A stretch of 64,000 bases of DNA from Promethearchaeota archaeon (GTDB lineage Archaea > Asgardarchaeota > Lokiarchaeia > Sigyniarchaeales > SOKP01). Each line of letters begins with the position of its first letter. Position 1 is the stretch's first letter. Location: contig JBHLOI010000011.1 of the NCBI GenBank assembly GCA_048940645.1, positions 18,204-82,203 on the forward strand. The letters run 5' to 3'. This document shows, one piece after another, positions 20,271 through 46,694 of the stretch. The position numbers and the translations under genes were made by a program. The notes beneath the pieces are model-generated. The model did not search any database, was not told where the DNA came from, and was given only the letters and a program-made list of their open reading frames with translations.

Positions 20271-20576
20271 ATGGGTGTAGAACCGTTAAAAGAAAATGGC
20301 AACATGAAACCTATTCCAAGAAAGATTTTTAAGTGCCCATTTTGTGGATTTTTAATTGAACTTGAAGTGGATCGTACATTATTCACACGGTATGTGAGCG
20401 AAAGCCACTTTTTGTATCCCCACTTGCATATTCATGGCAATCCACTTCATGGAACCCTCTGTTATTTGGATCCTAACATGGCAATACGAAATATTGAAAT
20501 TATCAGAAGTATCGAGATATTCAGGAGTTCCGATACATTCCAACAACTACTAAATAAATGCTTAAATCAGTTATAA
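20271..20576 (+). CDS. Small metal-binding protein (CxxC plus HxHxHGxxxH)
   Basis: CPFC...HLHIHGNPLH; SD-like GAGGT upstream. Confidence 0.65.
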   Translation: MGVEPLKENGNMKPIPRKIFKCPFCGFLIELEVDRTLFTRYVSESHFLYPHLHIHGNPLHGTLCYLDPNMAIRNIEIIRSIEIFRSSDTFQQLLNKCLNQL

Positions 20577-23116
20577 TAAAGATAGGTGAGCTTATTACTC
20601 TTTTAAATTTTACTAAAAAAGGTGAAAATGATGTTGAGCACCATAAAGAGGAAATTTTCAATTATATCCATGACGAGCGAATTCTACGAGTATTATTTGA
20701 ACAAAAAATTTTTCAGCTAAGAAATATCCAGAAAAAAGCGATTGAAAAGGGATTGTTTTTTAGAAAATCATTTCTAGTATGTGCTCCCTCAGGATCTGGC
20801 AAAACTATGATCGGAGAAATTTGCGCATTCCAAAACATTTTTAATAATTATGGAAAGTCTGTATATTTAGTCCCCTTTAAAGCCCTGGCTACAGAGAAGT
20901 ATTACTATTTTAAAAAATATTATAGCAGGTTCAATGTAAATATTGAGTTATCCATAGGAGATTATGATATAGATGATTCCGTATTGGCTAAAGCAGATAT
21001 TATTATCACTACATATGAGAAAATGGATTCAATTCTTCGCAATTTTTATGATAAAGAGTGGATCCATGATATATCTACAGTGATAGTAGATGAAATTCAT
21101 ATCATTGGTGAGTCAGATCGAGGTCCACGACTTGAATCACTAATTGTGCGGTTAAATGAATTCTTAAATTACCCCCAAATTATCGGACTTTCAGCTACCA
21201 TAGCCAACTCTCAATTTTTTAATAGCTGGTTATCTTCATTAGGGAACAATACTACACTTATTCTATCTAATGAGCGACCTGTACCTCTACATTATCAACT
21301 GAAAGTTACTCAAAATAAAGATTCTACCATTAAAAAAATTATTAAAAGCACGTTAGATCAAAAAGGTCAAGTGCTTGTCTTCCTAAATAAGCGAAAGTCT
21401 ACCCAACAGACCTCATTTCTACTAAAAAATGTAGTAATAAATCATATTGACATAAATAATCTTGATAATTGTAAAAAATTAGAGAAATCCTTAGAGGGGA
21501 TCAAGGGAGGACATAAGGAACTCAAAAAAATTGTAAAGTATGGATTGGCATTTCATCATGCTGGATTATTACCAAAAGAAAGAAAGTTAGTCGAGGATAA
21601 CTTCCGGAAGGGAATATTGAAAGTAATTTGTAGCACTACTACGTTAAGTGCTGGGATTAACACCCCTGCAAGAGTCGTGATTCTTAGGGATTTTAAAAAA
21701 TACGTCATTTCTGGGCATAACATCAAAAATTTTTCAGGGTATTATGAAAATGGAGATGGTTTTTCCTATTTTAAACCCTTCTCAGCAAATCAAGTATTTC
21801 AAATGTTAGGGAGGGCAGGTAGACCTGGACTGGATGCTGTTGGCTATGGGATTATTTTGGTAAATAATGTGGAGGAACGGAACTGGATTGAGGATAAATA
21901 TTTCCAAACTCTTTTAACTAAAGAAAGGCTTATCCCAAAGTATAATAACCTTGATTCTGGTTTGAATAAATTAAATACACTTAAAGAACAAGTGCTTTTA
22001 AGAATTTATGAGGAGGGAAATATCACAATAGATCAACTTAAATTATTTTTCGAACGTACATATTTTTGGTTTAATGTTAAACACAGAATGAATGATCAGC
22101 AAATCCCTATTGAACAATTTCTCATGATTAAGGAAATCACCCCCGAAAATATTCTCAAGCTCCATTCGGATAAGGAAAGGGTTAAAAAATTAGAATCCAA
22201 AAAAGATCAAATAAAGCTTTCGGAGATAACTAACTCTACAATCATGGGATTTATTAAAACTGCTTTTGGTGTGTTCACATGCCGATTTGATATTGATTCT
22301 GGGATTCAATGTTCCTGTGGCTTCAAGAATGGGATTTCTGATAATTTTGCCAATGATGAGTTTGCATTTGAATTTTGCGACCATATTACCTCTTTTTTGA
22401 AATACCTCATTGATGTCCCTGATCCAAGTTTCCAGAAGTACATTTCAGACATCATACCCAAATCAATTAAAAATCAATATATTCTTAATTATTTATTCGA
22501 AAAAGGGTTAATTATAAAGAATAATAATGGGCTGATTAAATGCTCTCAATTTGGTAAATTGATTATTAGATTATATCTGTATCCCGTATCTGGAGTTCTC
22601 ATTCGTCATAAATTAGAAAATTGTGCGTTAAATACTTTTCAAGAAATTATTAAAGAGGCATATGACGTTTTACGAGCAGAATATAAGGTAAGAGATTATA
22701 AAATGCTCCAACCGATTTTAGAATGGACAGATGAGGTTCCAATTGAGGAGATTTTAGAGAGATATAATATTATGGCCGGTGATTTGCATATGATCAGAGA
22801 TAATTTAGAGAGGATCATAACATTTATTGGGATTATTGCCATTCATTTAAGCGAAAATGGGTTTGATATTCAAGATGCTATGATTCGAGTATCAGAAATG
22901 GCAGAAACTCTCAAAATTCGTATTCATTATGGGATAAAAGAAGAATTATTTGACTTAGTATTACGATTAGATAACGTGGCACGAGTGAGGGCACGTATCT
23001 TATTTGATGCGGGATATCATACTGCTACTAAGGTGAAAAAAGAAGTTCCCTATATTTTGCATCGTAAAACAGGATTAGGTGTAAATTTATGTAAAAAAAT
23101 TATCAAAGGAAAATAA
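20558..23116 (+). CDS. Hel308/Ski2-like SF2 helicase with inserted SWIM zinc finger
   Basis: APSGSGKT, DEIH, LSAT, HHAGL, TLSAGINTPA, QMLGRAGRPG; CSCG...FCDH insertion; C-terminal HhH VARVRARILFDAGY. Exact start uncertain. Confidence 0.88.
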   Translation: MLKSVIIKIGELITLLNFTKKGENDVEHHKEEIFNYIHDERILRVLFEQKIFQLRNIQKKAIEKGLFFRKSFLVCAPSGSGKTMIGEICAFQNIFNNYGKSVYLVPFKALATEKYYYFKKYYSRFNVNIELSIGDYDIDDSVLAKADIIITTYEKMDSILRNFYDKEWIHDISTVIVDEIHIIGESDRGPRLESLIVRLNEFLNYPQIIGLSATIANSQFFNSWLSSLGNNTTLILSNERPVPLHYQLKVTQNKDSTIKKIIKSTLDQKGQVLVFLNKRKSTQQTSFLLKNVVINHIDINNLDNCKKLEKSLEGIKGGHKELKKIVKYGLAFHHAGLLPKERKLVEDNFRKGILKVICSTTTLSAGINTPARVVILRDFKKYVISGHNIKNFSGYYENGDGFSYFKPFSANQVFQMLGRAGRPGLDAVGYGIILVNNVEERNWIEDKYFQTLLTKERLIPKYNNLDSGLNKLNTLKEQVLLRIYEEGNITIDQLKLFFERTYFWFNVKHRMNDQQIPIEQFLMIKEITPENILKLHSDKERVKKLESKKDQIKLSEITNSTIMGFIKTAFGVFTCRFDIDSGIQCSCGFKNGISDNFANDEFAFEFCDHITSFLKYLIDVPDPSFQKYISDIIPKSIKNQYILNYLFEKGLIIKNNNGLIKCSQFGKLIIRLYLYPVSGVLIRHKLENCALNTFQEIIKEAYDVLRAEYKVRDYKMLQPILEWTDEVPIEEILERYNIMAGDLHMIRDNLERIITFIGIIAIHLSENGFDIQDAMIRVSEMAETLKIRIHYGIKEELFDLVLRLDNVARVRARILFDAGYHTATKVKKEVPYILHRKTGLGVNLCKKIIKGK

Positions 23117-23136
23117 TCTAACTATTGAAAGGAATT

Positions 23137-24114
23137 TTAAGAAAATTTTAATTTCCTTTTTCGTGTTACTAAAATTACTAAGCAAAAAATTGATAAAATC
23201 CCAAATGTAGTTATTAATGGAAAACTCCTAATATTTAAAGGCTTTTTAATTGAAAAAGTATCACTAATACTATAGAACTGTGGATGATCATAATCAATTA
23301 TTTTTATTATAAAGTTATGCCCCTCATATTCTCCAATATTCCAATTAAAATTTCCATCATTTTCGGTAAAATTATTTGTAAGTTGTTCCAAGAAACCATA
23401 TAAATTATCATGGAGTTCTATTTTAACCTTTTGTATGGGACCACTTGAATTCCAACTGATCCTAAAAATTGTTTTACTGTATAATATGTCTAAACTAGTA
23501 GGTCTTAGTATTGTTAGTTTGATTTCAATTGCTCTTAGCTTTATAAAAACATGGTCATTTTCATCCAATATAGTCTCGGCCTTTAATACTCCATTTGTAT
23601 CATATTCCCTCTGATGAATATATGTTTTATTAATCTCACTTTTCATTTGTTGAAATATAGATGAACCAACGCAATAATAGTCTAATGGGTATAGATCCTC
23701 GACTTCTTCAAGATAATCTTCTATAGGTATTGGTAAAAAAATACAAGCTTCAAATTGAATTGGATTTTTATATATTTGAACATTTTGTATGCTACCATTG
23801 TCATTAAAGTCCGTTCCATAATCCCAAAACTCAACATTTACACGCCAATAATTACCATAATCAGAAATATCCAGAATAAGTACCTTAAGTAAATCTCTTA
23901 CCCCAAAACTAGGTTCAGAACCTAAAACTTCAGTAAAAAGAGTAGAATTAAGTTCTTCAACCTCATAAATAAATTCATCACCTTCTTCTATTCCCAAAAA
24001 ATATTCTTGAGCCACTACTTCAACATTATAATAACAAAGAACTAATAATATGTTAAAAAAAGCAACTAAACAATATTTTTTTGAAAAACTTTTCATAAAC
24101 TTCGCTTTACTCAT
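23137..24114 (-). CDS. Secreted surface protein with Ig-like domain and C-terminal TM anchor
   Basis: Signal peptide; ISWNS.G.I..VKIEL...ENDGNFNW Ig-like motif; tail IRSFP-TM-RKRK resembles an archaeosortase-type sorting signal. Confidence 0.65.
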   Translation of the reverse strand: MSKAKFMKSFSKKYCLVAFFNILLVLCYYNVEVVAQEYFLGIEEGDEFIYEVEELNSTLFTEVLGSEPSFGVRDLLKVLILDISDYGNYWRVNVEFWDYGTDFNDNGSIQNVQIYKNPIQFEACIFLPIPIEDYLEEVEDLYPLDYYCVGSSIFQQMKSEINKTYIHQREYDTNGVLKAETILDENDHVFIKLRAIEIKLTILRPTSLDILYSKTIFRISWNSSGPIQKVKIELHDNLYGFLEQLTNNFTENDGNFNWNIGEYEGHNFIIKIIDYDHPQFYSISDTFSIKKPLNIRSFPLITTFGILSIFCLVILVTRKRKLKFS

Positions 24115-24280
24115 AAATCAATTATAAACTTCTGTCTCATAAAATAAACCATCACAAACTAATATAATATTTATGTTTTTGGTCCTCAAAGAATCTATAT
24201 TATTTTACTTTTTAAATGTATTTGTTTCCTCCTCTTTTTTTCCTTTTTATTGTTTCAAACTAGATATTTTAAGAAGGATT

Positions 24281-24589
24281 ATGAATGAATCAAAGGAATC
24301 TGAGGAATTCGATTGGGAAGATTATATTACAAAAAAGAAATCTCCTCAAGAATTCATGATCCGAGAATTTATTGTCTATAAGAAGTTAGGACAAAATTCG
24401 AATGAATATGTGATAAAAAAATTTGATAAGACTAAGGAACAAAATCTTGAAATGTTAAACCTTATTAAAGATATTTTGAACAATGTAGCCAATCTTACTC
24501 CTAAACAAATAATTGATTATTGTAACAGTCAAAGATACTTTATGAAACTTTATTTTAAACTAATACAGGAAGAATCTAAAAATGAATAA
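24281..24589 (+). CDS. Hypothetical protein (start revised from 24173 to MNESKES)
   Basis: AAGGA before ATG 24281; degenerate T7CC-TTTTTATT element at about 24235-24251 lies inside the longer ORF call. Confidence 0.55.
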   Translation: MNESKESEEFDWEDYITKKKSPQEFMIREFIVYKKLGQNSNEYVIKKFDKTKEQNLEMLNLIKDILNNVANLTPKQIIDYCNSQRYFMKLYFKLIQEESKNE

Positions 24590-24649
24590 ATTATTAAATT
24601 TTTAGTCCAATCGCCTTTTTTTATTCCTTCTTTGATAATCAATTTAGAA

Positions 24650-24663
24650 TTTTTCTTTAAATA
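24650..24663 (+). promoter_or_regulatory. T5C-TATA element
   Basis: TTTTTCTTTAAATA, 51 nt before ATG 24707. Confidence 0.65.
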
Positions 24664-24706
24664 AATTTAAAAATATTTAAATTTAAAAATAGTTAGTCGA
24701 TGAAAA

Positions 24707-24967
24707 ATGAGTTCTGGAATAGTAGAAAAAGATAAGGACGTTAATGTTAAGATAGATATACAAAGTGATCTTGAGTTAGAATATATATTATCTAAAATGA
24801 TTGTTCCTTTTACATATTTTTTGGAGGTAGAGCATGAACCTGATATTTATAATGGTAAAGAGTTGATTTCTTTTTCCCAAAGACATTCGACTTATAAAGC
24901 TCTTATGCTTACAGAATTTGAAGAAGCAATAAAAAACTTTTCAAAAGTTATAAAAACAAAGAAGTAG
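24707..24967 (+). CDS. Small hypothetical protein
   Basis: 86 aa ORF with upstream element. Confidence 0.6.
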   Translation: MSSGIVEKDKDVNVKIDIQSDLELEYILSKMIVPFTYFLEVEHEPDIYNGKELISFSQRHSTYKALMLTEFEEAIKNFSKVIKTKK

Positions 24968-24979
24968 ATAAAGAAAAAC

Positions 24980-25129
24980 CTAACTTTTCCTAAAGATTTT
25001 CACGGTATAATCCCAAATAGCAGGATTAGAAAACCCGTCTTCTCGAATCTCTTTTAGTACAGCCTCTTTATCCCTATCTTTTGGAGTTAATATAATGTGT
25101 TCTGTAATTCTTAATTCCTCTTTTATCAT
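24980..25129 (-). CDS. 49 aa microprotein MIKEELRITEHIILTPKDRDKEAVLKEIREDGFSNPAIWDYTVKIFRKS (not in ORF track)
   Basis: Strong SD TGAGGTG; variant element T8A-TTTATATA at 25174-25190 on the minus strand. Confidence 0.6.
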   Translation of the reverse strand: MIKEELRITEHIILTPKDRDKEAVLKEIREDGFSNPAIWDYTVKIFRKS

Positions 25130-25225
25130 ATTACACCTCATTTAGCAATTTTACTATCAAATAATTGCAGAAATATATAAATAAAAAAAATCTCTTTTTT
25201 GTAAGCAAATCCAGATGGTTCACAC

Positions 25226-25239
25226 TTTTTCTTTAAATA
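25226..25239 (+). promoter_or_regulatory. T5C-TATA element
   Basis: TTTTTCTTTAAATA, 57 nt before ATG 25289, divergent context. Confidence 0.7.
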
Positions 25240-25288
25240 TACCTGTTATTTTTAAACAGTACCAAAATCATCTGATATAAATATAATT

Positions 25289-26512
25289 ATGATTACCAAA
25301 AAAGTAGTTCCTTATATTGTACAACGGGAGGAGTTATTTCCTAACACGATAGATGAATATCTGAGAAGGCTAATCCCTCTGGTAAATGTAAACATTAATA
25401 GTGGAGCATGTTATCCATTTGAGCTGGAACATCGGTTAGGAAATACTAAGATCAATCCCTTTCTAAGAATTGCCCACCCAGATGATGCTCCAATCATAGC
25501 TGATATTTGTAAGGAAGTCTATGAGAATTCCTATCCCTATAAAGAAATGGAAGATGAGACATATGTGCGCAGCATGATCAAAAGCCCAACCAATCACTTT
25601 ATCTTATTTGAAACAGAATCAGGAGAGAATGCCGGTTGCTTCCGCTGTGCTTTGGATTTCGAGCATAAAAAAGGCTATATGGGAGGATTCATGGTGCGTC
25701 ACAAGTTCCAGAATAAGCTGGATGTGATTCGAGCAATTATGGGATCCTATATCTGGATGTGGAACTCATTTAAGGAAGATATTTTGGTATGGTATTGTGA
25801 AAATCGAACTGCCCATGCTTCTTCTCAGTATATTACCGCGGTATGCGGAATTAACACCATTGCTATCTTTCCCAATAAGGACATTTTTTTTGGACAAATC
25901 GAGTCTGATGTAATGGGAATCATTTATACCGAAAAGGTTTTACGAGAGATGAGAAGTGCTTTAGTTCCAACTCTCATTCCTTCAGCATTAAATTCATTTT
26001 TTTATTCAGATAAATTATATAGTCTCGGAAATATTAGAGTTGCCCAGCCATCTCTCAACCTGGATTTTAACTATATAAAAGGAATCTATGAGAATGTAAG
26101 GTGTGAATTTGAGGACGATAAGTATGGGTATAAACATTTTAAGTTCACAATTGCAGGAACAGATTCTTACTTTACATTCTTGCATAATACTCACATCCAG
26201 AATTTTGAGAAAGCTGATTATTCAGTCCAATCATTAGAGGAACTTTTTGTATTTATTGAATTTTTAAAAAAATTTATGAAGGAAAACACTATTCGCTATT
26301 GCGAGATGTTTATCTCAGCATATCGGCCTAAACATCAACAATTATTTTACGATGCCGGATTTCGGGCTCGAGGATATATTCCATGCTGGAACTACATACC
26401 AGAACAAAACAAATTTGAAGATTATATAGTGTTTAACTATTTTGAAGGCAATATTGAAAATATAGATTTATTACCTCTAGGATATGACCTGCTAAATTGT
26501 ATAGAAGTTTAG
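25289..26512 (+). CDS. GNAT-fold protein (tandem acetyltransferase-like domains)
   Basis: LRIAHPDDAPIIADI..EVY..SYPY, MVRHKFQNK, ENRTAHASSQ, GFRARGYIP. Confidence 0.6.
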   Translation: MITKKVVPYIVQREELFPNTIDEYLRRLIPLVNVNINSGACYPFELEHRLGNTKINPFLRIAHPDDAPIIADICKEVYENSYPYKEMEDETYVRSMIKSPTNHFILFETESGENAGCFRCALDFEHKKGYMGGFMVRHKFQNKLDVIRAIMGSYIWMWNSFKEDILVWYCENRTAHASSQYITAVCGINTIAIFPNKDIFFGQIESDVMGIIYTEKVLREMRSALVPTLIPSALNSFFYSDKLYSLGNIRVAQPSLNLDFNYIKGIYENVRCEFEDDKYGYKHFKFTIAGTDSYFTFLHNTHIQNFEKADYSVQSLEELFVFIEFLKKFMKENTIRYCEMFISAYRPKHQQLFYDAGFRARGYIPCWNYIPEQNKFEDYIVFNYFEGNIENIDLLPLGYDLLNCIEV

Positions 26513-26546
26513 TATTATAATTCTGCTGATTTATGAATTAAAAAAC

Positions 26547-27050
26547 TTACACTTTTAATAAAGTAAAATAGGCTTTTTCTGTATACTTTAAAACTCCATT
26601 TTTTATGGATCTTCTAATTAGCAATTTTAGTTCTAAGGGAGGGATATCATAATCTTTTGCTAGTATTTCAATCATATAGGCTGGAAATTTTTTATACCTT
26701 GAAGCTAATGTGTTTAGCAAGGCCTGAAATGTTAAAGTATAATCTTCCTTTTCTTTTGAAGTAAGTTTATCACTGAGTGCTTTTGGTGCAGAAAATAGAA
26801 TAAATTCATTTTCAATTGAAAATTGAGCCTCGCCCAAAGAATTTTGCTGTTGTTTCACTTTGTTTACCGCTTCAGTCATTCCATAGACGATTTCTCCCTT
26901 ATCTAAAATGTTCCTGACTTGATGAATTCTACCACAACGCAAACATTTTTTAGTTTTTTGGGTAGTTTTCACATAAGAATACTGTTGACATTTAGTACAA
27001 ATAAAAACCACATAAGGAGTTTGATCTTTTTCCCATTTTCTCTGCTCCAT
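26547..27050 (-). CDS. Zinc-ribbon (DUF1922-like) protein with C-terminal winged helix
   Basis: CTKC...KTKKCLRCG; helical C-terminus; overlaps hef stop codon. Confidence 0.65.
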   Translation of the reverse strand: MEQRKWEKDQTPYVVFICTKCQQYSYVKTTQKTKKCLRCGRIHQVRNILDKGEIVYGMTEAVNKVKQQQNSLGEAQFSIENEFILFSAPKALSDKLTSKEKEDYTLTFQALLNTLASRYKKFPAYMIEILAKDYDIPPLELKLLIRRSIKNGVLKYTEKAYFTLLKV

Positions 27051-29203: not shown

Positions 29204-29208
29204 TATTT

Positions 29209-29793: not shown

Positions 29794-29814
29794 CTAATCC
29801 TATAAGTCGTAGTG

Positions 29815-29830
29815 ATATAAAAAGAAAAAA
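29815..29830 (-). promoter_or_regulatory. T6C-TATA element (leaderless spacing)
   Basis: Minus strand TTTTTTCTTTTTATAT, 30 nt before ATG 29793. Confidence 0.7.
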
Positions 29831-37143: not shown

Positions 37144-37158
37144 TTTTTTCTTTATAAA
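37144..37158 (+). promoter_or_regulatory. T6C-TATA element upstream of radA paralog
   Basis: TTTTTTCTTTATAAA, 56 nt before ATG 37207. Confidence 0.7.
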
Positions 37159-37206
37159 TAAGGATTGTATCTAACTAGGTAATTAAAATTATAAATTGGA
37201 GTTGAT

Positions 37207-38461: not shown

Positions 38462-38559
38462 TTCTTAGTTTTTTTCTTCTTATTTTAAAAAGGAATAAAT
38501 CGAACATTTCTTTAACAAAAAGGTTAAATAATGAGATATAATCTTTTTAAAATAGAAAA

Positions 38560-39153
38560 ATGAACATAACAAACTATGAAAAACGTAAAAAAATTGGACT
38601 CTCTTTAATAGGAATTGGAACTGGTGTTTACTTATTGGGTCTTTTTGTCTTTCGTGTCTTATTGACATATCTCTCTAATTTATATTATGACCCTCCCATC
38701 GTCCCAACATTATATTTTAATATACAATTATTACAAAATTGGAGCTTCATGGTGGGTGTTATTATTTTTTTTATTGGAGTGCCTTTTTTGGATCAGTCTT
38801 TAAGGAACAGAGGAAAAGAAAGAAGTGAATATAAAATTATAAAAAATTACCACAAAATTGGTATCTCATTGATAATAACTGGATTCATAATCCTGGTATT
38901 AGGAATTATAGGAGGTTGGATAATATCAGGTTACTACAGGGGATTGATGTCACTGACATCAAGGGTGGGTTTTGGTTTACTTTCAGCACTATTATGGTTT
39001 TTCTTACTTTGTGTTGGAATAGGTATTATACGCACATCAAAGAACATACAAAAATGGAATAAATCAAAAGTAAGTATTATTAGCAGTAGAATTATTATAA
39101 CCATTGTTATTGTTTATTTTATTCTTTTTATTCCTCTTTTTCCTCTAGGATAA
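38560..39153 (+). CDS. Membrane protein (about 5 TM)
   Basis: Hydrophobic helices; KIGLSLI/KIGISLI internal repeat. Confidence 0.6.
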   Translation: MNITNYEKRKKIGLSLIGIGTGVYLLGLFVFRVLLTYLSNLYYDPPIVPTLYFNIQLLQNWSFMVGVIIFFIGVPFLDQSLRNRGKERSEYKIIKNYHKIGISLIITGFIILVLGIIGGWIISGYYRGLMSLTSRVGFGLLSALLWFFLLCVGIGIIRTSKNIQKWNKSKVSIISSRIIITIVIVYFILFIPLFPLG

Positions 39154-39196
39154 CTCCTAGACCTCTATTCTAATATAGCATATGAAAAAAGAAAAA

Positions 39197-40213
39197 TTAT
39201 TTTTCTTTAAATTTAAAGCTGATATCACCTTTCCTGCGATAATGAAAGACAATTAACACTAAAACTCCAGTAATTAATCCCGCACCTAGGATTGTGTATA
39301 GCCCTAAATCAAGCGGTATAGAAAAATTATTTGCTATGGAGGATTGATTATCATCAGGTGACGGAGGATTACAAATCGGCCCGTTGTCCACAATAGCGTA
39401 GGCAACATTCATCCAGTCTACTTCACAATAAACCCTAATACCAATGGTGTAGGGTCCTCCTATTGCGGTACCAAATGAAAATATGTTTACACTTGCTATA
39501 GATGCTAGGGTGTCATTTTCATAAATTGCGAATGGAATAGCATTAGGATCAATAATGTTATATATTACGCCCCCTTTGCTACTTAGATTCATAGATATTG
39601 AGGATACTCTCCCAATATAAAATTTATAACTTCTATCTGTTCCAAAAAATACCTCGTGTGATATAAAAAAACCATCTGAAAAACAAGTTACCTCATAGAA
39701 AATAATATTTCCGAATTCTTGCTGAGTAATTTTATCAAACAGACAATTTACATCTTCTCTTAATATTTTTATTTTAATATTAAGATTTTCCTCAAGCGTT
39801 GCTCTAAACATGAATGTATAGTTTCCGGCAACGGCAGTCCCAAATGGAATTGAAAATTCGCCATCTATTTGGGAAATATAGGTATAAAATATTTGAAATT
39901 CCCGATTAAAGCTATCCCATAGTGTAATATTCATATAGCAACTATGGGGAGTTACCACACTTACAATAATAGTATGCATGTAGGTTCTTAATAGGTCGAA
40001 GCTTAAGGTGTATGTATCTTGTGTTTGGGTAAAGGTGAATACTTTGCAAATATATTCGTGATTGCTGGTGTGAATCCTATTGTGTGTTAAATTCCCCAAT
40101 GATTGGGAGGAATTAGCAAGCGATCCATTATCTCGATATATATTGGGTGAGGAAAGTATTAAAAATCCGCCAAGAATTAAAATATATATAATTTTTCGTT
40201 TTTTAATATCCAT
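39197..40213 (-). CDS. Surface protein with two beta-rich repeats and C-terminal TM anchor
   Basis: Signal anchor; repeats FGTAVAGNYTF and FGTAIGGPYTI; C-terminal TM plus basic tail. Confidence 0.7.
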   Translation of the reverse strand: MDIKKRKIIYILILGGFLILSSPNIYRDNGSLANSSQSLGNLTHNRIHTSNHEYICKVFTFTQTQDTYTLSFDLLRTYMHTIIVSVVTPHSCYMNITLWDSFNREFQIFYTYISQIDGEFSIPFGTAVAGNYTFMFRATLEENLNIKIKILREDVNCLFDKITQQEFGNIIFYEVTCFSDGFFISHEVFFGTDRSYKFYIGRVSSISMNLSSKGGVIYNIIDPNAIPFAIYENDTLASIASVNIFSFGTAIGGPYTIGIRVYCEVDWMNVAYAIVDNGPICNPPSPDDNQSSIANNFSIPLDLGLYTILGAGLITGVLVLIVFHYRRKGDISFKFKEK

Positions 40214-40520
40214 ACACCTCTAACTCTTTAAATTCTGATTTTAATCCATGGATAATAACGCATCTATCATAATCAATACAACTAAAGCACGGTTTATCTG
40301 TCCAAAAATAGGCTGATTGGTGTGGACGTTCTATAATAAGTATTGGAAAGTTATTTCGAGGACAATTCAAGGCAGAATTGCTGATTTTACCTTTTTTGGG
40401 TAAAGGGTAAGAAATCTTGCAGATTTCACATTTTACAAACCGCTTGTAATTACTAGTTTTATACATTGTAAGAGAGCACTTACACTTAGGGCAAATCCCT
40501 ATCTCTTCTAATTTTTTCAT
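40203..40520 (-). CDS. Topoisomerase-I-type zinc-ribbon repeat protein
   Basis: IGICPKC...KRFVKC..C...YPLPKKG...CP pattern, as in type IA topoisomerase C-termini. Confidence 0.65.
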   Translation of the reverse strand: MKKLEEIGICPKCKCSLTMYKTSNYKRFVKCEICKISYPLPKKGKISNSALNCPRNNFPILIIERPHQSAYFWTDKPCFSCIDYDRCVIIHGLKSEFKELEVYGY

Positions 40521-40566
40521 TCAAAGGTCACATTACAATAAATTTAGAATACAGTATTTTTTGCCC

Positions 40567-40581
40567 TATATAAAGAAAAAA
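40567..40581 (-). promoter_or_regulatory. T6C-TATA element
   Basis: Minus strand TTTTTTCTTTATATA, 54 nt before ATG 40520, divergent context. Confidence 0.7.
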
Positions 40582-40653
40582 TTAGAAATCATGGAGAGAC
40601 CCTCCCTTTATATAAAATACTATTTGTATTACTCTACGATTTTTCTAACCTCA

Positions 40654-40668
40654 TTTTTTCTTTAAATA
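40654..40668 (+). promoter_or_regulatory. T6C-TATA element (leaderless spacing)
   Basis: TTTTTTCTTTAAATA, exactly 29 nt before ATG 40690, divergent context. Confidence 0.8.
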
Positions 40669-40689
40669 TCCATAATCAAATATCTCATT

Positions 40690-40914
40690 ATGGTCTTTTT
40701 TGATTATTTTGATGGGTTCCAGACAGGAATTGAATTTTTAATCGCATTAGGATCAATTATTGGGTTATTAGGTCTAATCATGGGAATTATTTTTTTAATT
40801 TGGGGGGGATCTAGATTGCGATACAAAATGCTTGGAGTTGTACTTGTTTCAATTGTTCTTTTAGTAATCTGTGGATTCGATACAGGATTAAAATACTTCA
40901 CCATTTACCGATAA
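40690..40914 (+). CDS. 74 aa two-TM protein, VirB2/CedA1 pilin-like architecture
   Basis: Amphipathic N-helix, Gly-rich TM1, basic loop GGSRLRYK, TM2. The CDS is solid; pilin identity is inferred. Confidence 0.6.
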   Translation: MVFFDYFDGFQTGIEFLIALGSIIGLLGLIMGIIFLIWGGSRLRYKMLGVVLVSIVLLVICGFDTGLKYFTIYR

Positions 40915-40935
40915 GAATTTAAAAATAAAGGAGAT

Positions 40936-41301
40936 TTAATGATATCCTTGGGACGATTGTTCTCCTATCTGAAATCCCAATAACTCAAATGCTTGTCCCG
41001 TAAGAAATGCTCCTATCCACAGTAAAAGAATCCCAAAAGCCATATATTTAAGATAGATTTTTCTGTTAAAAATAGTTCCCAGAATTGAAAATCCAAATAT
41101 AATCCATCCTGCCCATATACAAAGGTCACCAAGTTTACTAAAAATGAAATGAAAAAAGGTTCCTACTTGATACTGTAAGTTTATCCCGAAGAAGGGTACA
41201 TAAATTGCGATAATCGCAAATATACCAATGAATACCCATGTAAATGCTTTCGATTTGTGTTTTCTTTCTCGAATAATATAAATTCCATCCTTTCTGGACA
41301 T
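40936..41301 (-). CDS. Three-TM membrane protein (start revised to MSRKDG)
   Basis: AAGGAAGGA SD before ATG 41301; element upstream. Confidence 0.65.
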   Translation of the reverse strand: MSRKDGIYIIRERKHKSKAFTWVFIGIFAIIAIYVPFFGINLQYQVGTFFHFIFSKLGDLCIWAGWIIFGFSILGTIFNRKIYLKYMAFGILLLWIGAFLTGQAFELLGFQIGEQSSQGYH

Positions 41302-41355
41302 AATTTCCTTCCTTTTTATGATTATTGAAAGTTTGACGAACAATAACAATGAGAA

Positions 41356-41370
41356 TATTTAAAAGAAAAA
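41356..41370 (-). promoter_or_regulatory. T5C-TATA element
   Basis: Minus strand TTTTTCTTTTAAATA. Confidence 0.6.
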
Positions 41371-41449
41371 CAGCATCTCTCTTTTTTTGTTTAAATATAT
41401 AGAACAATGAAAAATATCAAAACAAAGTTTATTGATAAATTGAGGTTTT

Positions 41450-41599
41450 ATGCCAGGTCTCCACGAATTTGATGAATATGTTTTATATAGTTGGCGTAAT
41501 GAACAAATTAAAGAGCAAATTAAAAAAAATAAACATGTTAAGCGTATTCGTAATAAAAAAAAAAAAACGAATAAAAAATTAGAGATCGGATATTCCTAG
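41450..41599 (+). CDS. 49 aa basic microprotein MPGLHEFDEYVLYSWRNEQIKEQIKKNKHVKRIRNKKKKTNKKLEIGYS (not in ORF track)
   Basis: SD TGAGGT at 41441; variant element T7G-TTTAAATA at 41382-41397. An A13 run makes the C-terminus uncertain. Confidence 0.55.
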   Translation: MPGLHEFDEYVLYSWRNEQIKEQIKKNKHVKRIRNKKKKTNKKLEIGYS

Positions 41600-41715
41600 T
41601 TTTTTTAGAAAAAGAGTGCTATTTGCTTTACCAAAAATTTTTTTACGATATTCTTTTCATATTATAATATTTTTTAAGAAGAATTAGAATGGATGTTCTT
41701 AAAGAAAAAGAATAA

Positions 41716-41729
41716 TTTTTCTTTAAATA
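41716..41729 (+). promoter_or_regulatory. T5C-TATA element (leaderless spacing)
   Basis: TTTTTCTTTAAATA, exactly 29 nt before ATG 41751. Confidence 0.75.
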
Positions 41730-41750
41730 TTTTTAGTAACATTTTTTCTC

Positions 41751-41846
41751 ATGAAAGAAGATCTAATGGATATTATTGGATTAATCGCAGCATTTGGTGT
41801 ATTGTTAGGATTAGGAATATGGTTTAGTCTTCTGGTATTTCTTTAG
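41751..41846 (+). CDS. 31 aa single-TM microprotein MKEDLMDIIGLIAAFGVLLGLGIWFSLLVFL (not in ORF track)
   Basis: Clean TM helix with GxxxG; element at the diagnostic 29 nt spacing. Confidence 0.6.
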   Translation: MKEDLMDIIGLIAAFGVLLGLGIWFSLLVFL

Positions 41847-41957
41847 GATGATATAAAATATGGGTATTTTAATAAATTTCCCAATACTTTTCACGTAAAC
41901 CCTTTCTTTTATAAATCCTAATTTTCTGTAAAGAATTTTATTTCGTTAAACCAGATA

Positions 41958-41972
41958 TTTTTTCTTTTAATA
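41958..41972 (+). promoter_or_regulatory. T6C-TATA element (leaderless spacing)
   Basis: TTTTTTCTTTTAATA, exactly 29 nt before ATG 41994. Confidence 0.75.
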
Positions 41973-41993
41973 TATAGTATTTCTATTTACATT

Positions 41994-43094
41994 ATGGGAG
42001 TAAAATTACATAATCTTATTATCCGCAAAAAATTGGATTTTTCTGATTTAGCAGGAACCATTATTGCAATCGATGCTCCCAACATTATAATGAGTTTATT
42101 TAATTTTGTCCGTAAAAATTCAGATGGTAGTCCTGCTGGTTTAATTTTAGATCGAACCCAACGTCCAATTTCTCATTTATATGGTCTTTTATATCGAATT
42201 AACTTCTATTATAGTAAGAAGATTTTTCCTCTATTCTGCTTCGATGGAAAAGTATCTGAATTAAAGAAACTCATAACTAAAGACCAGTTAAACGATTATC
42301 TATTTACTCAGAAATGGTACCAATCTGCCTTGAGGTCTGGCAATAATGAATTAGCAAGAAAAATCGCATTAAGTAAAGAGTATTTATGGCAAAACATTAT
42401 TCAAGAATCAAAACAACTCCTTAATAATCTTGGAGTACCGTATTTCGATTCTCCGGCCTCAGCAGAGTCACAATGTGCCCAGTTAGTAAGAGATAAGATT
42501 GCTCATTATTCCAATTCCCAGGATTTTGATTCTTTAGTATTTGGGTGTCCCCACTTAGTTCAGAACATTTCAAAGTCATTACGAAGAAAAGTCCACGGAA
42601 AATGGACGTATCAGAAAATTATTCCCTATAAAATTAATTTAAAAGAGAATTTACACTCCTTAGGAATTGATCAGTTTCAGTTAGTTGATATGGTCATCTT
42701 GATGGGATGTGATTATTTTCCTGGTGTCAGAGGAATCGGTCCAAAAAAAGCCCTTAATTTGATAAAAAAATTCCATTCTTTAGAAAAGGTAATATTTCAA
42801 GAAAAAAAAAGATATAATTTCAAAGCGCTTACTTCAGATTTAATTATTAAAATTCGAAAACTATTTTTACTTCCAGATGTGTTATCTTCATATTCTGAGA
42901 TCACTTGGAACATACCAAATGTACCCCTGGTTAAATCCTTTTTATGTGAGCAGCATTTCTTAAATAAAGAGCGAGTGCAAAACAATCTCAAGAAATTCTT
43001 ACGGAATTTTGAGAAGTGTAGAGAATTTTTTGTCACTCAAAAAGATAAGCCTCGTATTATTCAAAAAACATTAAATCAATACTCCTTAATTTAA
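41994..43094 (+). CDS. fen: Flap endonuclease 1 family protein, divergent paralog
   Basis: MGV, IAIDA, SHLYGL, FDGK, AESQCA, SQDFDSLVFG, GCDY.PG..GIGPKKA; PIP-like QKTLNQY. Confidence 0.88.
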   Translation: MGVKLHNLIIRKKLDFSDLAGTIIAIDAPNIIMSLFNFVRKNSDGSPAGLILDRTQRPISHLYGLLYRINFYYSKKIFPLFCFDGKVSELKKLITKDQLNDYLFTQKWYQSALRSGNNELARKIALSKEYLWQNIIQESKQLLNNLGVPYFDSPASAESQCAQLVRDKIAHYSNSQDFDSLVFGCPHLVQNISKSLRRKVHGKWTYQKIIPYKINLKENLHSLGIDQFQLVDMVILMGCDYFPGVRGIGPKKALNLIKKFHSLEKVIFQEKKRYNFKALTSDLIIKIRKLFLLPDVLSSYSEITWNIPNVPLVKSFLCEQHFLNKERVQNNLKKFLRNFEKCREFFVTQKDKPRIIQKTLNQYSLI

Positions 43095-43098
43095 CCAA

Positions 43099-43113
43099 TT
43101 TTCCTTTATAAAT
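43099..43113 (+). promoter_or_regulatory. T4CC-TATA element
   Basis: TTTTCCTTTATAAAT, 62 nt before ATG 43167. Confidence 0.55.
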
Positions 43114-43166
43114 AACCATTTTATGGAATTGGTAAACAATTCTTTTCCATTCCATATTGATGAGTT

Positions 43167-43763
43167 ATGGCAGATACTATCGCAAAAAAGTTAATGCCCA
43201 CTAGTGTTTTAGTAAAAATTCTTCTTGATTTTTCCTCAAAATCTACGGTATTGAATTACCTATTCCGGAAAAAAAGTTTCGTTGATTCCCATGAAAATAT
43301 CTTAGTTCTTTCCGATTTCACTATTAATAAAATTTCCCAAGAAGTAAATGTTCCTTTTGATACAACCGAAGGAATTATTATCCAATGTTTACTTAATATG
43401 TTTTACTTTAAACGTGCCTTAAATTGTGTTAGATTCATATGGAACAATGATATGGAAAAACTCAGGCGGAGATTAAGGGTATATTTATATAAAGCACATC
43501 GAATTGCTCCTGTGTTTGATTATAAACGAGCCAGGACAAATAGTGAAACTCTCATTACATTAATGAAGAGGAGTTGCTATTTCCCGCGATTCACTACTCA
43601 GCTTGCTTTAGTAATATATGTAACTGATGCGAATAACCAGCATAAAATCTTTGATACGCCCATTCTCCAGCGGAATCTACGAGCTTTTTGCGATTGTTCT
43701 GCATTTGCCTTTCATCGAGCAAGAAATAAGTTGAGAATAAATAATCAAGGTAAAACTTATTAG
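43167..43763 (+). CDS. Protein with C-terminal TFB-like cyclin/HTH repeat, no zinc ribbon
   Basis: QLALVIYV...LQRNLRAFCDCSAFAFHRARNKL aligns gap-free to the TFB pattern AAAALYI...TQREVAEVARVTEVTVRNRYKEL. Confidence 0.5.
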   Translation: MADTIAKKLMPTSVLVKILLDFSSKSTVLNYLFRKKSFVDSHENILVLSDFTINKISQEVNVPFDTTEGIIIQCLLNMFYFKRALNCVRFIWNNDMEKLRRRLRVYLYKAHRIAPVFDYKRARTNSETLITLMKRSCYFPRFTTQLALVIYVTDANNQHKIFDTPILQRNLRAFCDCSAFAFHRARNKLRINNQGKTY

Positions 43764-43888
43764 ATTTTTTCTGTGCTAATGGACAACTGCTTTAAAAACA
43801 TAAAAAACATATTTATTACCAAAATTGTTATATTTTGAATTTCCTTATTTTTTTATTGATAAAATAAGACAAAAAAGAGGAATCTGAG

Positions 43889-44293
43889 TTGAAGGATAAA
43901 ATTAAGCTTACATTGCCATTAGTTACTTTAAAAATATTAAATAGTCTTTGTATTCTGTTCAGTGCATTTATATTGATAAGTACTTTAAGAGCTTTGTATT
44001 TTCTCACTGCTGATCCTCCAGATTTACCCTGCCTTATGTGTGAGGGATGCCCCTGTCCACCTAGTGATTTTGTTATAGCCAGAAATTATTATCTTAATTT
44101 CTTGTTCCCAACGTTGATTTTCTCAAATATAATATTGATTGCTCTTTGTATCATTTTAATTTCAATTTTGAAATTTAAATATAGCTTCCTCAAATTAACT
44201 CTTTTTATAAAAAAGTATGGAAAAAGTGAGGATTTATTCAAAGCATATAAATCTACAATCCAATCTAATGATTTTAACCTTAAATATAGATGA
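43889..44293 (+). CDS. Two-TM protein with Cys/Pro-rich loop
   Basis: PPDLPCLMCEGCPCPP between TMs. Confidence 0.55.
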   Translation: MKDKIKLTLPLVTLKILNSLCILFSAFILISTLRALYFLTADPPDLPCLMCEGCPCPPSDFVIARNYYLNFLFPTLIFSNIILIALCIILISILKFKYSFLKLTLFIKKYGKSEDLFKAYKSTIQSNDFNLKYR

Positions 44294-44332
44294 TTTAAGA
44301 ATAATTATTCTTAGAAGTGTTTATTTAGAGTA

Positions 44333-45661
44333 TTACTTTTTCATATTTTTTAATTTTAATTTTCTCGATTTTAAAAAATTTTGAAATTCAAAATCACTTA
44401 TTTTATCTGCTTCGAGGGCTCCCGTACTTTCTAGATACTTTTTAAAATCTTTAATAAGAGAGATAACTTCTTCTTGTTTAAAATTTTCTTTAAAAATGAA
44501 ATTATTTCGCTCTAAAATAAATTCAGAATACCACCAATAAAATATGACAGTTATAAGTATAATTAGGAAATTGTTTACTAAACTAATCTGACTTTGACTA
44601 GCATAAGTTCCTGAGATTGAACCAGCTCCAATAATCATAATGATTTGCCCTTCAAAATATAAAATTGTGAATGCAAAAAGGAAAAATGATAAATTATTGG
44701 GAGTAAATATCTTAAATCTGAAAAGTTTACCTCCTAAACCCTTTAAGACCAAAATTGCTGTTAAAATCATTAAAAGAATGTCAATAACTACTCTGAAAAA
44801 ATCGAATCCATGGATTTCTGTTACTCTTCTAAACGACCAAATGAAACTAAACGATCTATACCATAAGTAAAGCCATATAAATATGTAAAATAATGAAGAA
44901 AAAACGTTTGGCGTTTCATTTTTAATGCTTTTAATAAATAAGTTAATTACTTTATAAGAGGTTATGATTATGATAATATACATTGCTATATTCCATCCAT
45001 TAAACCAATAAATTGGTTCTAATGAATCTCCTGGACTTTGAATTTCAAAATAATTTAATAATCCAAAATAAGTACTTAATTGGAACACAATTGGTAATAT
45101 TAATCCAATAGTTAAGAATACGTAACTGTATATTCTACTAATATTGGACTCTCTATTTCTAGTTATTAATATATCATTAGCTTTATTCGAAATGCTAACC
45201 ATAATTTTTCTAATAAAGAAAATCTGGATCAAATTCCACCCAAAATAAATAATAACACATGAATATGGTAGTATTATATCCCAACCTAAAAACTGAACTG
45301 GTATTTGTGAAGAGGAGCCAAAGAAGAAATAGATTAATATTAAAATTAAGCAAATTCCAAAAGTAATCATTAGGATTGTAAGCTTTTTTATGGTATGTTT
45401 TCTTTCTTTTGAGAATATTTGAGCCTCCATTTGAGGGATCATACTAATAAACATTAAGATTAAATAAGTAAGAGTAAAGGAAATGGTTACAATCAAGACA
45501 ATATTACCGATATCCTCTTTTGGATAAAGGCTAAGAACAGTAATTACAATTATAATTAAAAAAAATAAAATCGTATAAATAATATGACTATGTTCAAATA
45601 ATCTGTGAAATCTTGTTTTAATAGTTTCTTTATCCTTTATAGTATTAATATTTTCATTCAT
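44333..45661 (-). CDS. Polytopic membrane protein (about 10 TM)
   Basis: Hydrophobicity pattern; no family recognised. Confidence 0.7.
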   Translation of the reverse strand: MNENINTIKDKETIKTRFHRLFEHSHIIYTILFFLIIIVITVLSLYPKEDIGNIVLIVTISFTLTYLILMFISMIPQMEAQIFSKERKHTIKKLTILMITFGICLILILIYFFFGSSSQIPVQFLGWDIILPYSCVIIYFGWNLIQIFFIRKIMVSISNKANDILITRNRESNISRIYSYVFLTIGLILPIVFQLSTYFGLLNYFEIQSPGDSLEPIYWFNGWNIAMYIIIIITSYKVINLFIKSIKNETPNVFSSLFYIFIWLYLWYRSFSFIWSFRRVTEIHGFDFFRVVIDILLMILTAILVLKGLGGKLFRFKIFTPNNLSFFLFAFTILYFEGQIIMIIGAGSISGTYASQSQISLVNNFLIILITVIFYWWYSEFILERNNFIFKENFKQEEVISLIKDFKKYLESTGALEADKISDFEFQNFLKSRKLKLKNMKK

Positions 45662-45705
45662 AGCTCTAATAGTTAAATTATTTCGATAATATTATTTCTA
45701 ACTCA

Positions 45706-45720
45706 TTTTTTCTTTAAAAA
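45706..45720 (+). promoter_or_regulatory. T6C-TATA element
   Basis: TTTTTTCTTTAAAAA, 55-61 nt before the RPA start, divergent context. Confidence 0.65.
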
Positions 45721-45767
45721 TATTTATTATAATTTTAACTTATCTGTCTATTTATTAATATAAAGAG

Positions 45768-46694
45768 TTGATTATGAGTTCATACATGGAAGAGATATAT
45801 CAAAAACTTATTGAACATGGTTTTTCAAAAAAGGAATTAGAAAACGAAATTAATAAGAAAGCAAAGGAATATGGTGGATTTATGTCTAAGCAAGGTATCC
45901 TTTTTATCATTGCTAAAGAATATGGAATGAATATTAATTCTCCAGAAATAGAGACAGAGCTTTATCAGAAGGTTGAGGAGAATATAAACTATGATGAATT
46001 TACTATTCCTATTTCCAATCTCAAAGAAGGCATGGAAAATGTAGTGTTATTGGGTAAAATTTTAAAATATGTTCCTCCAAAAGAATTTCTACGTAAAGAT
46101 AATTCCATTGGGGCAATTTCCTCATGTATTATTGGTGATAATTCAGGGGATATAAAAGTTGTCATGTGGGATGAAAAAGCAATAGCAATGAATAATGATT
46201 CTTCTAAAGAGGGCGAATTAGTAAGAGTAATTAGTGATTATATCAAAATAAATCGAAATGGAAACCTAGAAGTTCATGTAGGAAAAAAAGGCAAGATCAT
46301 TTTAGCACCTAGAGATATAAATTCAAAGATTAAAAAAAAATTAGCAGAAATACCATATAAAAGGAAGGAATTCAATAATCATTTTTCAATTAGTGATCTA
46401 ATCAATAAATATTCGTTTATTCAAAAATTAAAAGGACAGGTTCACATTAAAAAATTCAAGGAAATTACCAAAAAGGATGGTGAAAAAATGTTTTTATTAA
46501 AGCTAATTTTGAGTGATGATACTGGATCTGTTTGTATGAATATTTGGGGTATGAACGCTATAGAAACTTTGAAACTTATTGAAGAAGGAGATCATATTAT
46601 TGTAAAAAATCTTTCTGTAAAATTCAATTCTTATACTAGTGAAAAGGAGCTTTCCTTTACTAAAAAATCTACCTTAGAAGTAGTTTCTTTTTAA
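45768..46694 (+). CDS. rpa: Replication protein A / SSB with two OB folds
   Basis: N-terminal helical domain (KAKEYGGFMS...IIAKEYG); OB folds ISNLKEG..NV.LLGKI...GDNSGDIKVVMW and LSDDTGSVCMNIWG. Confidence 0.85.
   Translation: MIMSSYMEEIYQKLIEHGFSKKELENEINKKAKEYGGFMSKQGILFIIAKEYGMNINSPEIETELYQKVEENINYDEFTIPISNLKEGMENVVLLGKILKYVPPKEFLRKDNSIGAISSCIIGDNSGDIKVVMWDEKAIAMNNDSSKEGELVRVISDYIKINRNGNLEVHVGKKGKIILAPRDINSKIKKKLAEIPYKRKEFNNHFSISDLINKYSFIQKLKGQVHIKKFKEITKKDGEKMFLLKLILSDDTGSVCMNIWGMNAIETLKLIEEGDHIIVKNLSVKFNSYTSEKELSFTKKSTLEVVSF

Follow-up and report, generated by a model that had tools for sequence, protein, structure and literature searches.

Six divergent recombination genes on an accessory island of a Lokiarchaeia-type Asgard archaeon

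The window analysed here is a stretch of 64,000 nucleotides (G000:C104:18204-82203) from a metagenome-assembled genome (MAG) of 3.83 Mb, which consists of 126 contigs and is 89.6% complete. The guanine-cytosine (GC) content is ~30% throughout the window, and the nearest database relatives of its proteins are found in MAGs labelled Promethearchaeota or Lokiarchaeota. Six recombination genes, which are Hel308-like, Hef-like, RadB-like, RadA, FEN1-like and RPA-like, lie between positions 20558 and 46694. A first-pass annotation of the sequence described them as a near-complete and divergent homologous-recombination toolkit linked to an element, and proposed that they are programme-specific paralogs, comparable to the meiosis-specific DMC1 versus RAD51. 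The locus therefore raises the question of whether these genes are the housekeeping recombination genes of the cell or an additional set and, in the latter case, of what larger unit they form a part.

As described below, all six genes were found at the annotated positions, within an inserted accessory island of ~43 kb (9871..52829). The reading that we favour, with moderate confidence, is that they are the DNA-processing module of a self-regulated accessory island of ~40 kb, probably mobile, in a Lokiarchaeia-type Asgard genus. No description of this island was found in the literature searched.

Divergent paralogs of recombination genes

Every open reading frame (ORF) of the region was compared with the whole genome using tblastn, and the gene families were scored with curated models. 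Each family has a paralog elsewhere in the genome, with an identity of 30-42% and on a contig of equal GC. The window copy of RadA reaches 321.9 bits with the model NF003301, above the cut-off of 259, and 288.2 bits with TIGR02236, below the cut-off of 361, compared with 449 and 427-431 bits for the copies on contigs C2 and C40. The window copy of FEN1 scores 265 bits with TIGR03674 (cut-off 352), and the copy on contig C37 scores 428 bits. For Hef, a score of 571 bits is obtained with NF010337 over model positions 4-555 of 781, compared with 862 bits for the copy on contig C50, which is full length (positions 9-780) and also matches the Xpf nuclease. The RPA values are 97 bits in the window (cut-off 442) and 194 bits for the protein of 568 amino acids (aa) on contig C43, and the RadB-like ATPase reaches 35 bits with the radB model TIGR02237, where the cut-off is 172. 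The Hel308-like protein scores best at 403 bits with the Hel308-type NCBIfam models, whose equivalog cut-offs of 887-1216 are not reached. Each of the six genes thus scores under the curated cut-off of its family or under its paralog elsewhere in the genome, and the description of the set as divergent was correct.

The Hel308 family is the exception in this comparison. The copy on contig C53 reaches 192 bits, and the family search of the whole genome returned nothing above the window copy and no canonical Hel308. The island copy may be the only one in the cell, which counts against taking the whole set as an accessory one. Nevertheless, it is very improbable that the six genes are simply housekeeping recombination genes that became neighbours by chance. 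This explanation can draw on the missing better Hel308 and on the incompleteness of the genome; it is refuted for four of the five families tested by the higher-scoring canonical copies of RadA (two), FEN1, Hef and RPA, and congeners of 98% completeness lack the block altogether or retain it in eroded form. The view of the first-pass annotation that the genes are extra paralogs, which would fail if they were the only copies in the genome, accordingly stands for RadA, FEN1, Hef and RPA and does not extend to Hel308. The term near-complete toolkit was an overstatement, since no gene for end resection or resolvase is recognisable in the block. NurA lies on contig C52 and not in the block, and Hjc was not detected anywhere in the 90%-complete genome.

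The two canonical RadA genes of G000 are located at C2:20551-21549 and C40:8223-9497 and belong to one clade. The C40 protein has an acidic N-terminal extension of ~90 aa with a CxxC motif. Both copies are seen in most genomes of the genus.

The island-type RadA (37232..38461, plus strand) is a protein of 409 aa with a Rad51 domain, and the promoter motif described in the next section is located at 37145-37158. In the alignment, it keeps the N-terminal helix-hairpin-helix (HhH), the FxxA polymerisation motif, the Walker A motif (GPFKSGKT), the Walker B motif and the catalytic Glu. The L2 loop is rewritten, and the protein has a short FKTKGFSSN insert and ends in an acidic linker followed by a second HhH pair; the versions of other families in G029 and G030 are without this second HhH tail. 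In an exhaustive search, the island RadA is represented by one full-length 50% cluster at 678 bits, after which the score drops to ~230 bits.

The phylogeny of RadA was determined from 94 sequences under the LG+C20 model with a quick search, where the support was given by the Shimodaira-Hasegawa-like approximate likelihood-ratio test (SH-aLRT) only, and intein-containing sequences and fragments (lengths outside 295-430 aa) were left out. The island RadA clade has an SH-aLRT of 100 and a stem of 0.76, and takes in versions from other families (three other genera). Both canonical RadA copies of G000 fall in a separate clade (SH-aLRT 98). The eukaryotic Rad51 sequences form their own clade (SH-aLRT 100), and the island clade lies outside it. 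The backbone of the tree does not resolve where the island RadA clade originated. When scored with the eukaryotic models, the island RadA gives 262 bits for RAD51 (cut-off 478) and 261 bits for DMC1 (cut-off 448). With equal scores for the two and a position outside eukaryotic Rad51, the comparison with DMC1 and RAD51 has no phylogenetic content, and the DMC1 analogy holds for the island set only loosely.

In one island lineage, found at the four loci G008:C12 (L026:1-1250), G008:C49, G015:C255 and G017:C32, RadA is split in two ORFs, a core ORF of ~290 aa and an ORF of ~141-150 aa that contains the linker and the second HhH, with an overlap of a few bases. The recurrence of this split at four loci leaves two explanations, a stable split or a programmed frameshift.

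The other recombination genes are arranged as single genes or in operons. The Hel308-like helicase (20558-23116, 852 aa) is the second gene of a two-gene operon (20271..23116, plus strand; motif at 20222-20235), following an ORF of 101 aa, and matches the Pfam families DEAD, Helicase_C and Helicase_dom4_arc. The Hef-like gene (27050-29203, 717 aa) lies in an operon on the minus strand (26547..29793; motif at 29816-29829) between an ORF of 194 aa (29209-29793) and a Zn-ribbon protein (26547-27050) with DUF1922/DUF5817 matches. The Hef-like protein matches DEAD, RNA_helicase_helical and Helicase_C, as is expected for a superfamily 2 helicase with the helical insertion domain; no match was obtained past model position 555, and neither the ERCC4 nuclease nor HhH2 was found.

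The RadB-like RecA-fold ATPase (35362-36069, 235 aa) is the last gene of an operon (34247..36069, plus strand; motif at 34211-34225), after a membrane protein with an HExxH motif (34247-35026) and a protein with two transmembrane (TM) segments (35023-35361). Walker A and B are invariant among its orthologs. In the PDB profile search, the E-values were 1e-10 for Rad57, 2e-7 for XRCC3, 4e-5 for RadA and 3e-4 for RadB, in a ranking that sets aside fusions of tandem RecA copies, since the repetition inflates their scores. The first protein of the operon is polytopic in the TM scan with an invariant HExxH, and is probably an intramembrane metalloprotease, as judged from these sequence features. Since the operon is shared with the HExxH and two-TM membrane proteins, the RadB-like ATPase may serve a membrane machine instead of, or besides, mediating recombination.

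The island-type FEN1 paralog (41994..43094, plus strand, 366 aa; motif at 41959-41972) keeps six of the seven active-site acidic residues in the alignment, and carries at its C-terminus the sequence QKTLNQY, which resembles a PCNA-interacting protein (PIP) box. One Glu of the SEGE motif is replaced by Ser in the clade of the genus, and this Glu is kept in the G029 and G030 versions. In score, the protein is nearer to FEN1 of archaea, with about 185 bits, than to the human protein, with 136 bits. The short RPA paralog (45768..46694, plus strand, 308 aa; motif at 45707-45720) consists of the RPA N-terminal domain and two OB folds and is without the zinc-finger region that is present in the C43 protein.

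The promoter motif and the TFB-fold protein

The link of the six genes to an element, which the first-pass annotation had claimed, is real: one promoter motif drives all six, either directly or through their operons. The motif consists of TTTTTTC directly before a TATA box (TTTAAATA). In the form TTTTTC[C/T]TTWWAWA, it precedes the FEN, RPA and RadA genes themselves, and the leading gene in each of the Hel308, Hef and RadB operons, at a distance of 22-74 nucleotides (nt). Across the 3.83 Mb genome, 14 copies of the strict 14-mer were counted, of which eight are within the 43 kb island, where 0.07 are expected (Poisson P about 1e-14); the enrichment in the block is about 116-fold. The TATA box alone is not enriched in the island. 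With the relaxed motif, all 21 occurrences in the 64 kb window fall between 10035 and 49705, and none is in the flanks. TTTTC precedes the gene-proximal TATA in 67% of island promoters, compared with 0.9% genome-wide.

About 18 island promoters carry TTTTTTC at the position of the TFB-recognition element (BRE), just upstream of the TATA box. For many genes, 22-24 nt separate the end of the motif from the start codon, and this spacing in the sequence suggests leaderless transcripts. The motif is kept at the orthologous promoters of other island copies despite protein identities of only 35-65%.

The island also encodes a divergent protein of the TFB/TFIIB family with a C-terminal extension of ~100 aa (32362..33627, minus strand), which was identified using an AlphaFold 2 model and Foldseek. 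The model, for which ten orthologs were used, is confident over residues ~100-320, and all 40 of the 40 best Foldseek matches are TFIIB, TFB or Brf. The comparison with the Pyrococcus woesei TFB core bound to BRE and TATA gives a TM-score of 0.71-0.73 with a root-mean-square deviation of 3.6-3.9 A. A CxxC...CxxC motif is invariant among the orthologs, and the zinc ribbon and two cyclin-like repeats are both present. At the sequence level, the similarity is marginal, with no Pfam match and a PDB profile E-value of 0.09; the TFB fold of this protein is confirmed at the level of the predicted structure. From the co-occurrence of the protein and the motif, we infer that the island TFB reads the BRE-position motif. 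The island regulates itself in that it combines the BRE-position motif with its own divergent TFB-fold protein.

On contig C12 of G000 (500-6000), paralogs of three island genes treated below or above, encoding the 74-aa hairpin, the 3-TM protein and the HExxH protein, occur together with three island promoter motifs. This stretch may be what is visible of a second island that has diverged, or may belong to the regulon as an outlying part.

Insertion sites, distribution and mobility

The island interrupts a pair of arginine-pathway genes, which are an amino-acid kinase (8965-9870) and an ornithine carbamoyltransferase (OTCase; 52850-53782) and stand 43 kb apart here. The two genes are directly adjacent in G008:C26 (102 bp) and G016:C22 (~160 bp), and both G008 and G016, where this site is empty, hold the block on other contigs. 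In G018, a remnant of 21 kb is left at the kinase-OTCase site, from which the RadA, FEN, RPA and Hef-like genes are gone, and the Hel308-like gene (residues ~208-748 gone) and the gene of a 1234-aa protein are internally deleted. In G010, the block is at the same site, spread over several contigs.

Of 18 congeners, about half have an ortholog of the window RadA with 74-96% identity. In other families of the order, there are versions with 50-60% identity, and canonical RadA matches lie at ~40-44%. The neighbourhoods within ±20-40 kb of the RadA orthologs were compared. The syntenic core, which extends from about 11228 to 50113, recurs in at least six other loci, and its complete gene order, from the membrane cluster at 11228-18598 to the gene at 49727-50113, is present in G002, G008 (C20, C12 and C49), G015 and G016. 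Large parts of this order are found in G005, G012 and G017. In other families (G029, G030 and G025), short contigs again have RadA beside FEN, Hel308 or Hef homologs, where the linkage types are RadA+FEN+Hel308, RadA+FEN and RadA+Hef+Hel308. The clustering noted in the first-pass annotation is not due to chance, as at least nine loci of the genus show the gene order again and partial RadA-centred linkages exist, as related clusters, in other families of the order. A public contig with the label Hermodarchaeota has the island gene order as well. Cross-class labels (Hermod-, Hod-, Thor- and Odinarchaeota) on RadA matches of ~75% identity were considered as evidence of transfer and set aside, as the one contig examined contains island genes only.

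At least one ortholog of the island RadA, FEN or RPA is found in 14 of the 19 genomes of the genus, and the island-type FEN and RPA go with the island in their distribution. The number of block copies per carrying genome ranges from one to four, with four copies of FEN in G008 and three of RPA in G017. G008 has a single OTCase ortholog, and a mixed bin is for this reason an unlikely source of its several copies. The flanking contexts are of at least three or four distinct kinds, of which one is common to G002, G008-C20 and G015, and others are seen at G016-C1, G008-C12 and G008-C49. The counterparts of the G016 and G008 island flanks in G000 are contig ends or weak matches. The copies within G008 differ by 5-40% at the protein level, and the copy at G008-C20 is nearer to that of G002 than to its own sister copies. 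Within the genus, the identity of island proteins is 33-86%, compared with 77-88% for the flank genes. These results show that the island is a dispensable insertion at this locus, that it occurs at several chromosomal sites and sometimes in multiple copies, and that its proteins diverge faster than the flanks. The notion of a programme put forward in the first-pass annotation holds to the extent that the genes are co-regulated through a private motif and lie together with a gene for a TFB-fold protein; it fails in that the genes form a dispensable island rather than a fixed cellular feature.

Further differences were observed around the insertion sites. G002:C152 and G008:C20 have one flanking gene in common with G015:C255, and the island body of ~45 kb is inverted relative to this shared flank and the adjacent zinc-ribbon gene, which suggests an inversion of the whole island body. 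The single-contig genome G026 of another family contains a fragment of 131 residues (G026:C1:1881456-1881839) that is 62% identical to the island-type RadA and is probably the remnant of a lost island. Penicillin-amidase and amidohydrolase genes (window positions 6302-8767 and 53903-55540) are absent from the matching region of G008:C26; therefore, the neighbourhood of the insertion is variable beyond the island.

Several results weigh against a mobile island that carries its own transfer apparatus. Searches of the window copy with Pfam, PHROGs and PADLOC gave no match to an integrase, transposase, relaxase, coupling protein, replication initiator, capsid or terminase, and no integrase, relaxase or Rep is present among the edge and cargo genes of two other island copies. 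The only matches at these edges are genes of metabolism or cargo (M20 peptidase, ThiF-like, radical SAM, PALP and ferredoxin), and the window flanks consist of metabolic genes. There is no tRNA gene in the window, flanking direct repeats of the attachment (att) type were not found in the AT-rich boundaries, and the GC of the island equals that of the host. The differing locations could partly reflect ordinary rearrangement, as members of the genus share only about 80% protein identity, and the multi-copy genomes carry an estimated contamination of 8-9%. The 1234-aa membrane protein of the island has no similarity to VirB4 or HerA in Pfam, in a Walker A pattern search or in a PDB profile of six orthologs. 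The designation of the membrane half of the island as a DNA-transfer apparatus draws on an HhH domain and membrane topology and is a lead only. The horizontal mobility of the island is probable and is read from its distribution rather than from a mechanism, because no mobility enzyme was found.

These points bear directly on an explanation in which the block is not mobile but a cell-owned inducible regulon on a variable island, that is, a response linked to DNA damage or DNA exchange, with a specialised TFB that turns on a surface or import apparatus together with dedicated recombination paralogs. This explanation is nearest to the programme of the first-pass annotation and is, in our estimation, a minority possibility that deserves to be kept in view. 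In this form, it would have an analogue in the Ups/Ced response that TFB3 drives in Sulfolobales. It accords with the missing genes for mobility and replication initiation, the host-like GC, the private TFB and its motif, the presence of the block in most genomes of the genus, the one site that three genomes have in common by descent, and the PIP-like box of FEN, which implies cooperation with the host PCNA. It conflicts with the clean empty sites in genomes that hold the block elsewhere, with up to four copies in one genome that are 5-40% apart, with the erosion or loss of the block in near-complete genomes, and with the much faster divergence of the island proteins compared with the flanks; these features would be unusual for a vertically inherited cellular regulon.

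An integrated virus, or a virus-like element with recombination-dependent replication, is an improbable identity for the block. The recombination-dependent replication module of phage T4 comprises UvsX, UvsY, gp32, RNase H and UvsW/Dda, and the island has the same functional inventory, with a recombinase, a mediator-like ATPase, a single-stranded DNA-binding protein (SSB), a FEN-type nuclease and two helicases. The own transcription factor and the multi-copy, patchy distribution are also in line with such an element. Unlike T4, the island has many membrane proteins, and no match to a DNA polymerase, primase, capsid, portal, terminase or other virion gene was found in it. Ten unknown island proteins have no match in PHROGs, and the island-type RadA is absent from IMG/VR, where the sole match is 36% identical.

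It is equally hard to see the block as a defence island, for example a Hachiman-like system around a HamB helicase of the Hel308/Ski2 type, and we regard this as a slim chance. The Hel308-like protein does match HamB models at 147 bits, the Hef-like protein matches PbeA and Cas3 weakly, and defence islands are typically variable and fast-evolving. However, these helicase matches are generic and weaker than those to Hel308 (403 bits) and Hef (571 bits); PADLOC returned nothing beyond them, and HamA or another effector is absent. A recombinase combined with SSB and FEN is not a known defence architecture.

Membrane genes, possible function and known systems

In the TM scan, about half of the island genes are predicted to code for proteins of the membrane or surface. 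At the left end of the core, a cluster on the minus strand (11228..18598), which is syntenic in all copies, encodes the 1234-aa protein, two smaller TM proteins and an HhH protein with an HHH_5 domain and two predicted TM segments. A ThiF/E1-like gene (L047:11443-12267) stands beside this cluster in every other island copy and is missing in the window copy; its orthologs are in G008:C20, G002, G015, G016 and G008:C49, and a paralog with 47% identity lies on contig C11 of G000, beside paralogs of the window genes 25289-26512 and 10094-11179.

Between RadA and FEN, a group of surface and membrane genes with three motif promoters (39197..41349, with genes on both strands) is present in all copies. 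It consists of an anchored repeat protein (39197-40213, minus strand), a 105-aa protein (40203-40520, minus strand), a hairpin of 74 aa with two TM segments (40690-40914, plus strand) and a 3-TM protein (40936-41349, minus strand), as characterised with the TM scan.

A highly conserved trio on the plus strand (47110..49683) encodes a 221-aa protein, a small GTPase of the Arf/Ras type (47762-48478; Pfam Arf/Ras) and a 392-aa protein. The 221-aa protein and the small GTPase are the most conserved non-recombination genes of the island, with 65-76% identity across copies. The PDB profiles of the 392-aa protein and of a 407-aa island protein gave no match. Upstream of RadA, a small zinc-ribbon protein of the CxxC...CxxC type (36733..37113, plus strand; motif at 36698-36711) was recognised in an alignment of 16 homologs. 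Together with its paralog at 49727-50113 (both ~125 aa), it brackets the part of the island from RadA to the GTPase, each of the two genes having its own motif promoter, and a third paralog is located on contig C24. The structural model of the protein at 36733-37113 is of moderate quality (predicted local distance difference test score, pLDDT, of 65) and has no fold match at E <= 0.001.

On the basis of these gene contents, the following working scheme can be proposed. The island TFB, together with the host TBP and RNA polymerase, would read the private BRE-like element and thereby co-activate all island operons. About half of the products would build a membrane or surface apparatus, including the HhH protein as a putative DNA-binding membrane component, and the soluble half would handle single-stranded or branched DNA. 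In the latter, the short RPA would coat single-stranded DNA, and the island RadA would form filaments and pair strands, possibly loaded by the Rad57/XRCC3-like ATPase. The Hel308-like helicase and the nuclease-less Hef-like helicase may remodel D-loops and forks, and the FEN paralog, docked on the host PCNA by means of its PIP-like tail, may trim flaps. Such a set would most likely serve recombination coupled to cell-to-cell DNA transfer, or a recombination-dependent maintenance or replication of the element.

The scheme can be extended to a self-contained, horizontally spreading DNA-exchange island, in which an orthogonal TFB-promoter pair drives a surface apparatus and a private recombination set for intercellular transfer and homologous integration, and which is also the source of long-branch second copies of RadA and Fen1-2. 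We put this extended form forward as speculative and rather unlikely as a whole. The island bears on recent arguments about how the recombination and replication proteins of eukaryotes originated, in which extra Asgard RadA and Fen1 copies have been used (PMC12722695, PMC12680538). If these extra copies are indeed carried by dispensable, fast-evolving and probably transferable islands, their long branches, patchiness and affinities need to be re-read, and mobile-element transfer and long-branch artefacts become live explanations for the extra RadA and Fen1. If the DNA-exchange island is real, the long-branch second copies of RadA and Fen1-2 that are now read as cellular paralogs in eukaryogenesis would stem from islands. 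Irrespective of this extended form, the TFB and the BRE-position motif offer a natural orthogonal pair that can be tested, and the coexistence of the island recombinase with two canonical RadA proteins in one cell poses the question of how their filaments are kept apart or mixed.

In Matsuo et al. 2025 (PMC12722695), extra RadA paralogs apart from the canonical copy were described in some Asgard MAGs, with eukaryotic Rad51/DMC1 monophyletic and outside all Asgard RadA, and no genomic context was given. The branching picture in our RadA tree agrees with this. The extra RadA described here differs in being located on a dispensable island with FEN, RPA and helicases, in its C-terminal HhH, and in the presence of two canonical RadA genes besides it. 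Similarly, a long-branch, non-canonical Fen1-2 beside the canonical Fen1-1 has been reported in Lokiarchaeia and other Asgard lineages and was treated as a cellular replisome paralog related to eukaryotic Fen1, again with no genomic context (PMC12680538). The island FEN fits the description of Fen1-2 and is a candidate member of that group; it differs in being island-borne, patchy and multi-copy, and in its greater proximity to archaeal than to human FEN1.

With respect to its size of ~40 kb, patchy occurrence, multiple sites, empty sites and erosion, the island resembles integrative conjugative elements and the integrated elements of Asgard archaea (PMC11529989, PMC8813620). RadA, TFIIB, VirB4 and FEN are mentioned on no element in these two studies of Asgard mobile elements. 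It departs from integrative conjugative elements in that integrase, relaxase and att site are missing and a type IV secretion ATPase was not confirmed.

A dedicated transcription factor and a promoter box, an HhH membrane protein and DNA-processing paralogs such as a second SSB also make the island comparable, by analogy, to the competence regulons of bacteria. In these regulons, which are controlled by ComX or ComK and include SsbB, DprA, ComM and ComEA, the genes are core and scattered, and the housekeeping RecA is reused. The island differs from them in the domain of life and the protein families, and it is a single block with its own recombinase.

In the ultraviolet response of Sulfolobales, TFB3, a specialised TFB paralog, activates the Ups pili and Ced DNA import. 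The Ced and Ups genes are fixed chromosomal loci, and the housekeeping RadA is used. The present system is distinguished by its variable island with its own recombinase, SSB and FEN, by the full-length TFB fold and by a distinct motif at the BRE position; a CedB/VirB4-type ATPase, as in Ced, was not confirmed in the island. What the two would have in common, as an analogy, is a specialised TFB associated with a surface or membrane apparatus that is linked to DNA exchange and recombination repair.

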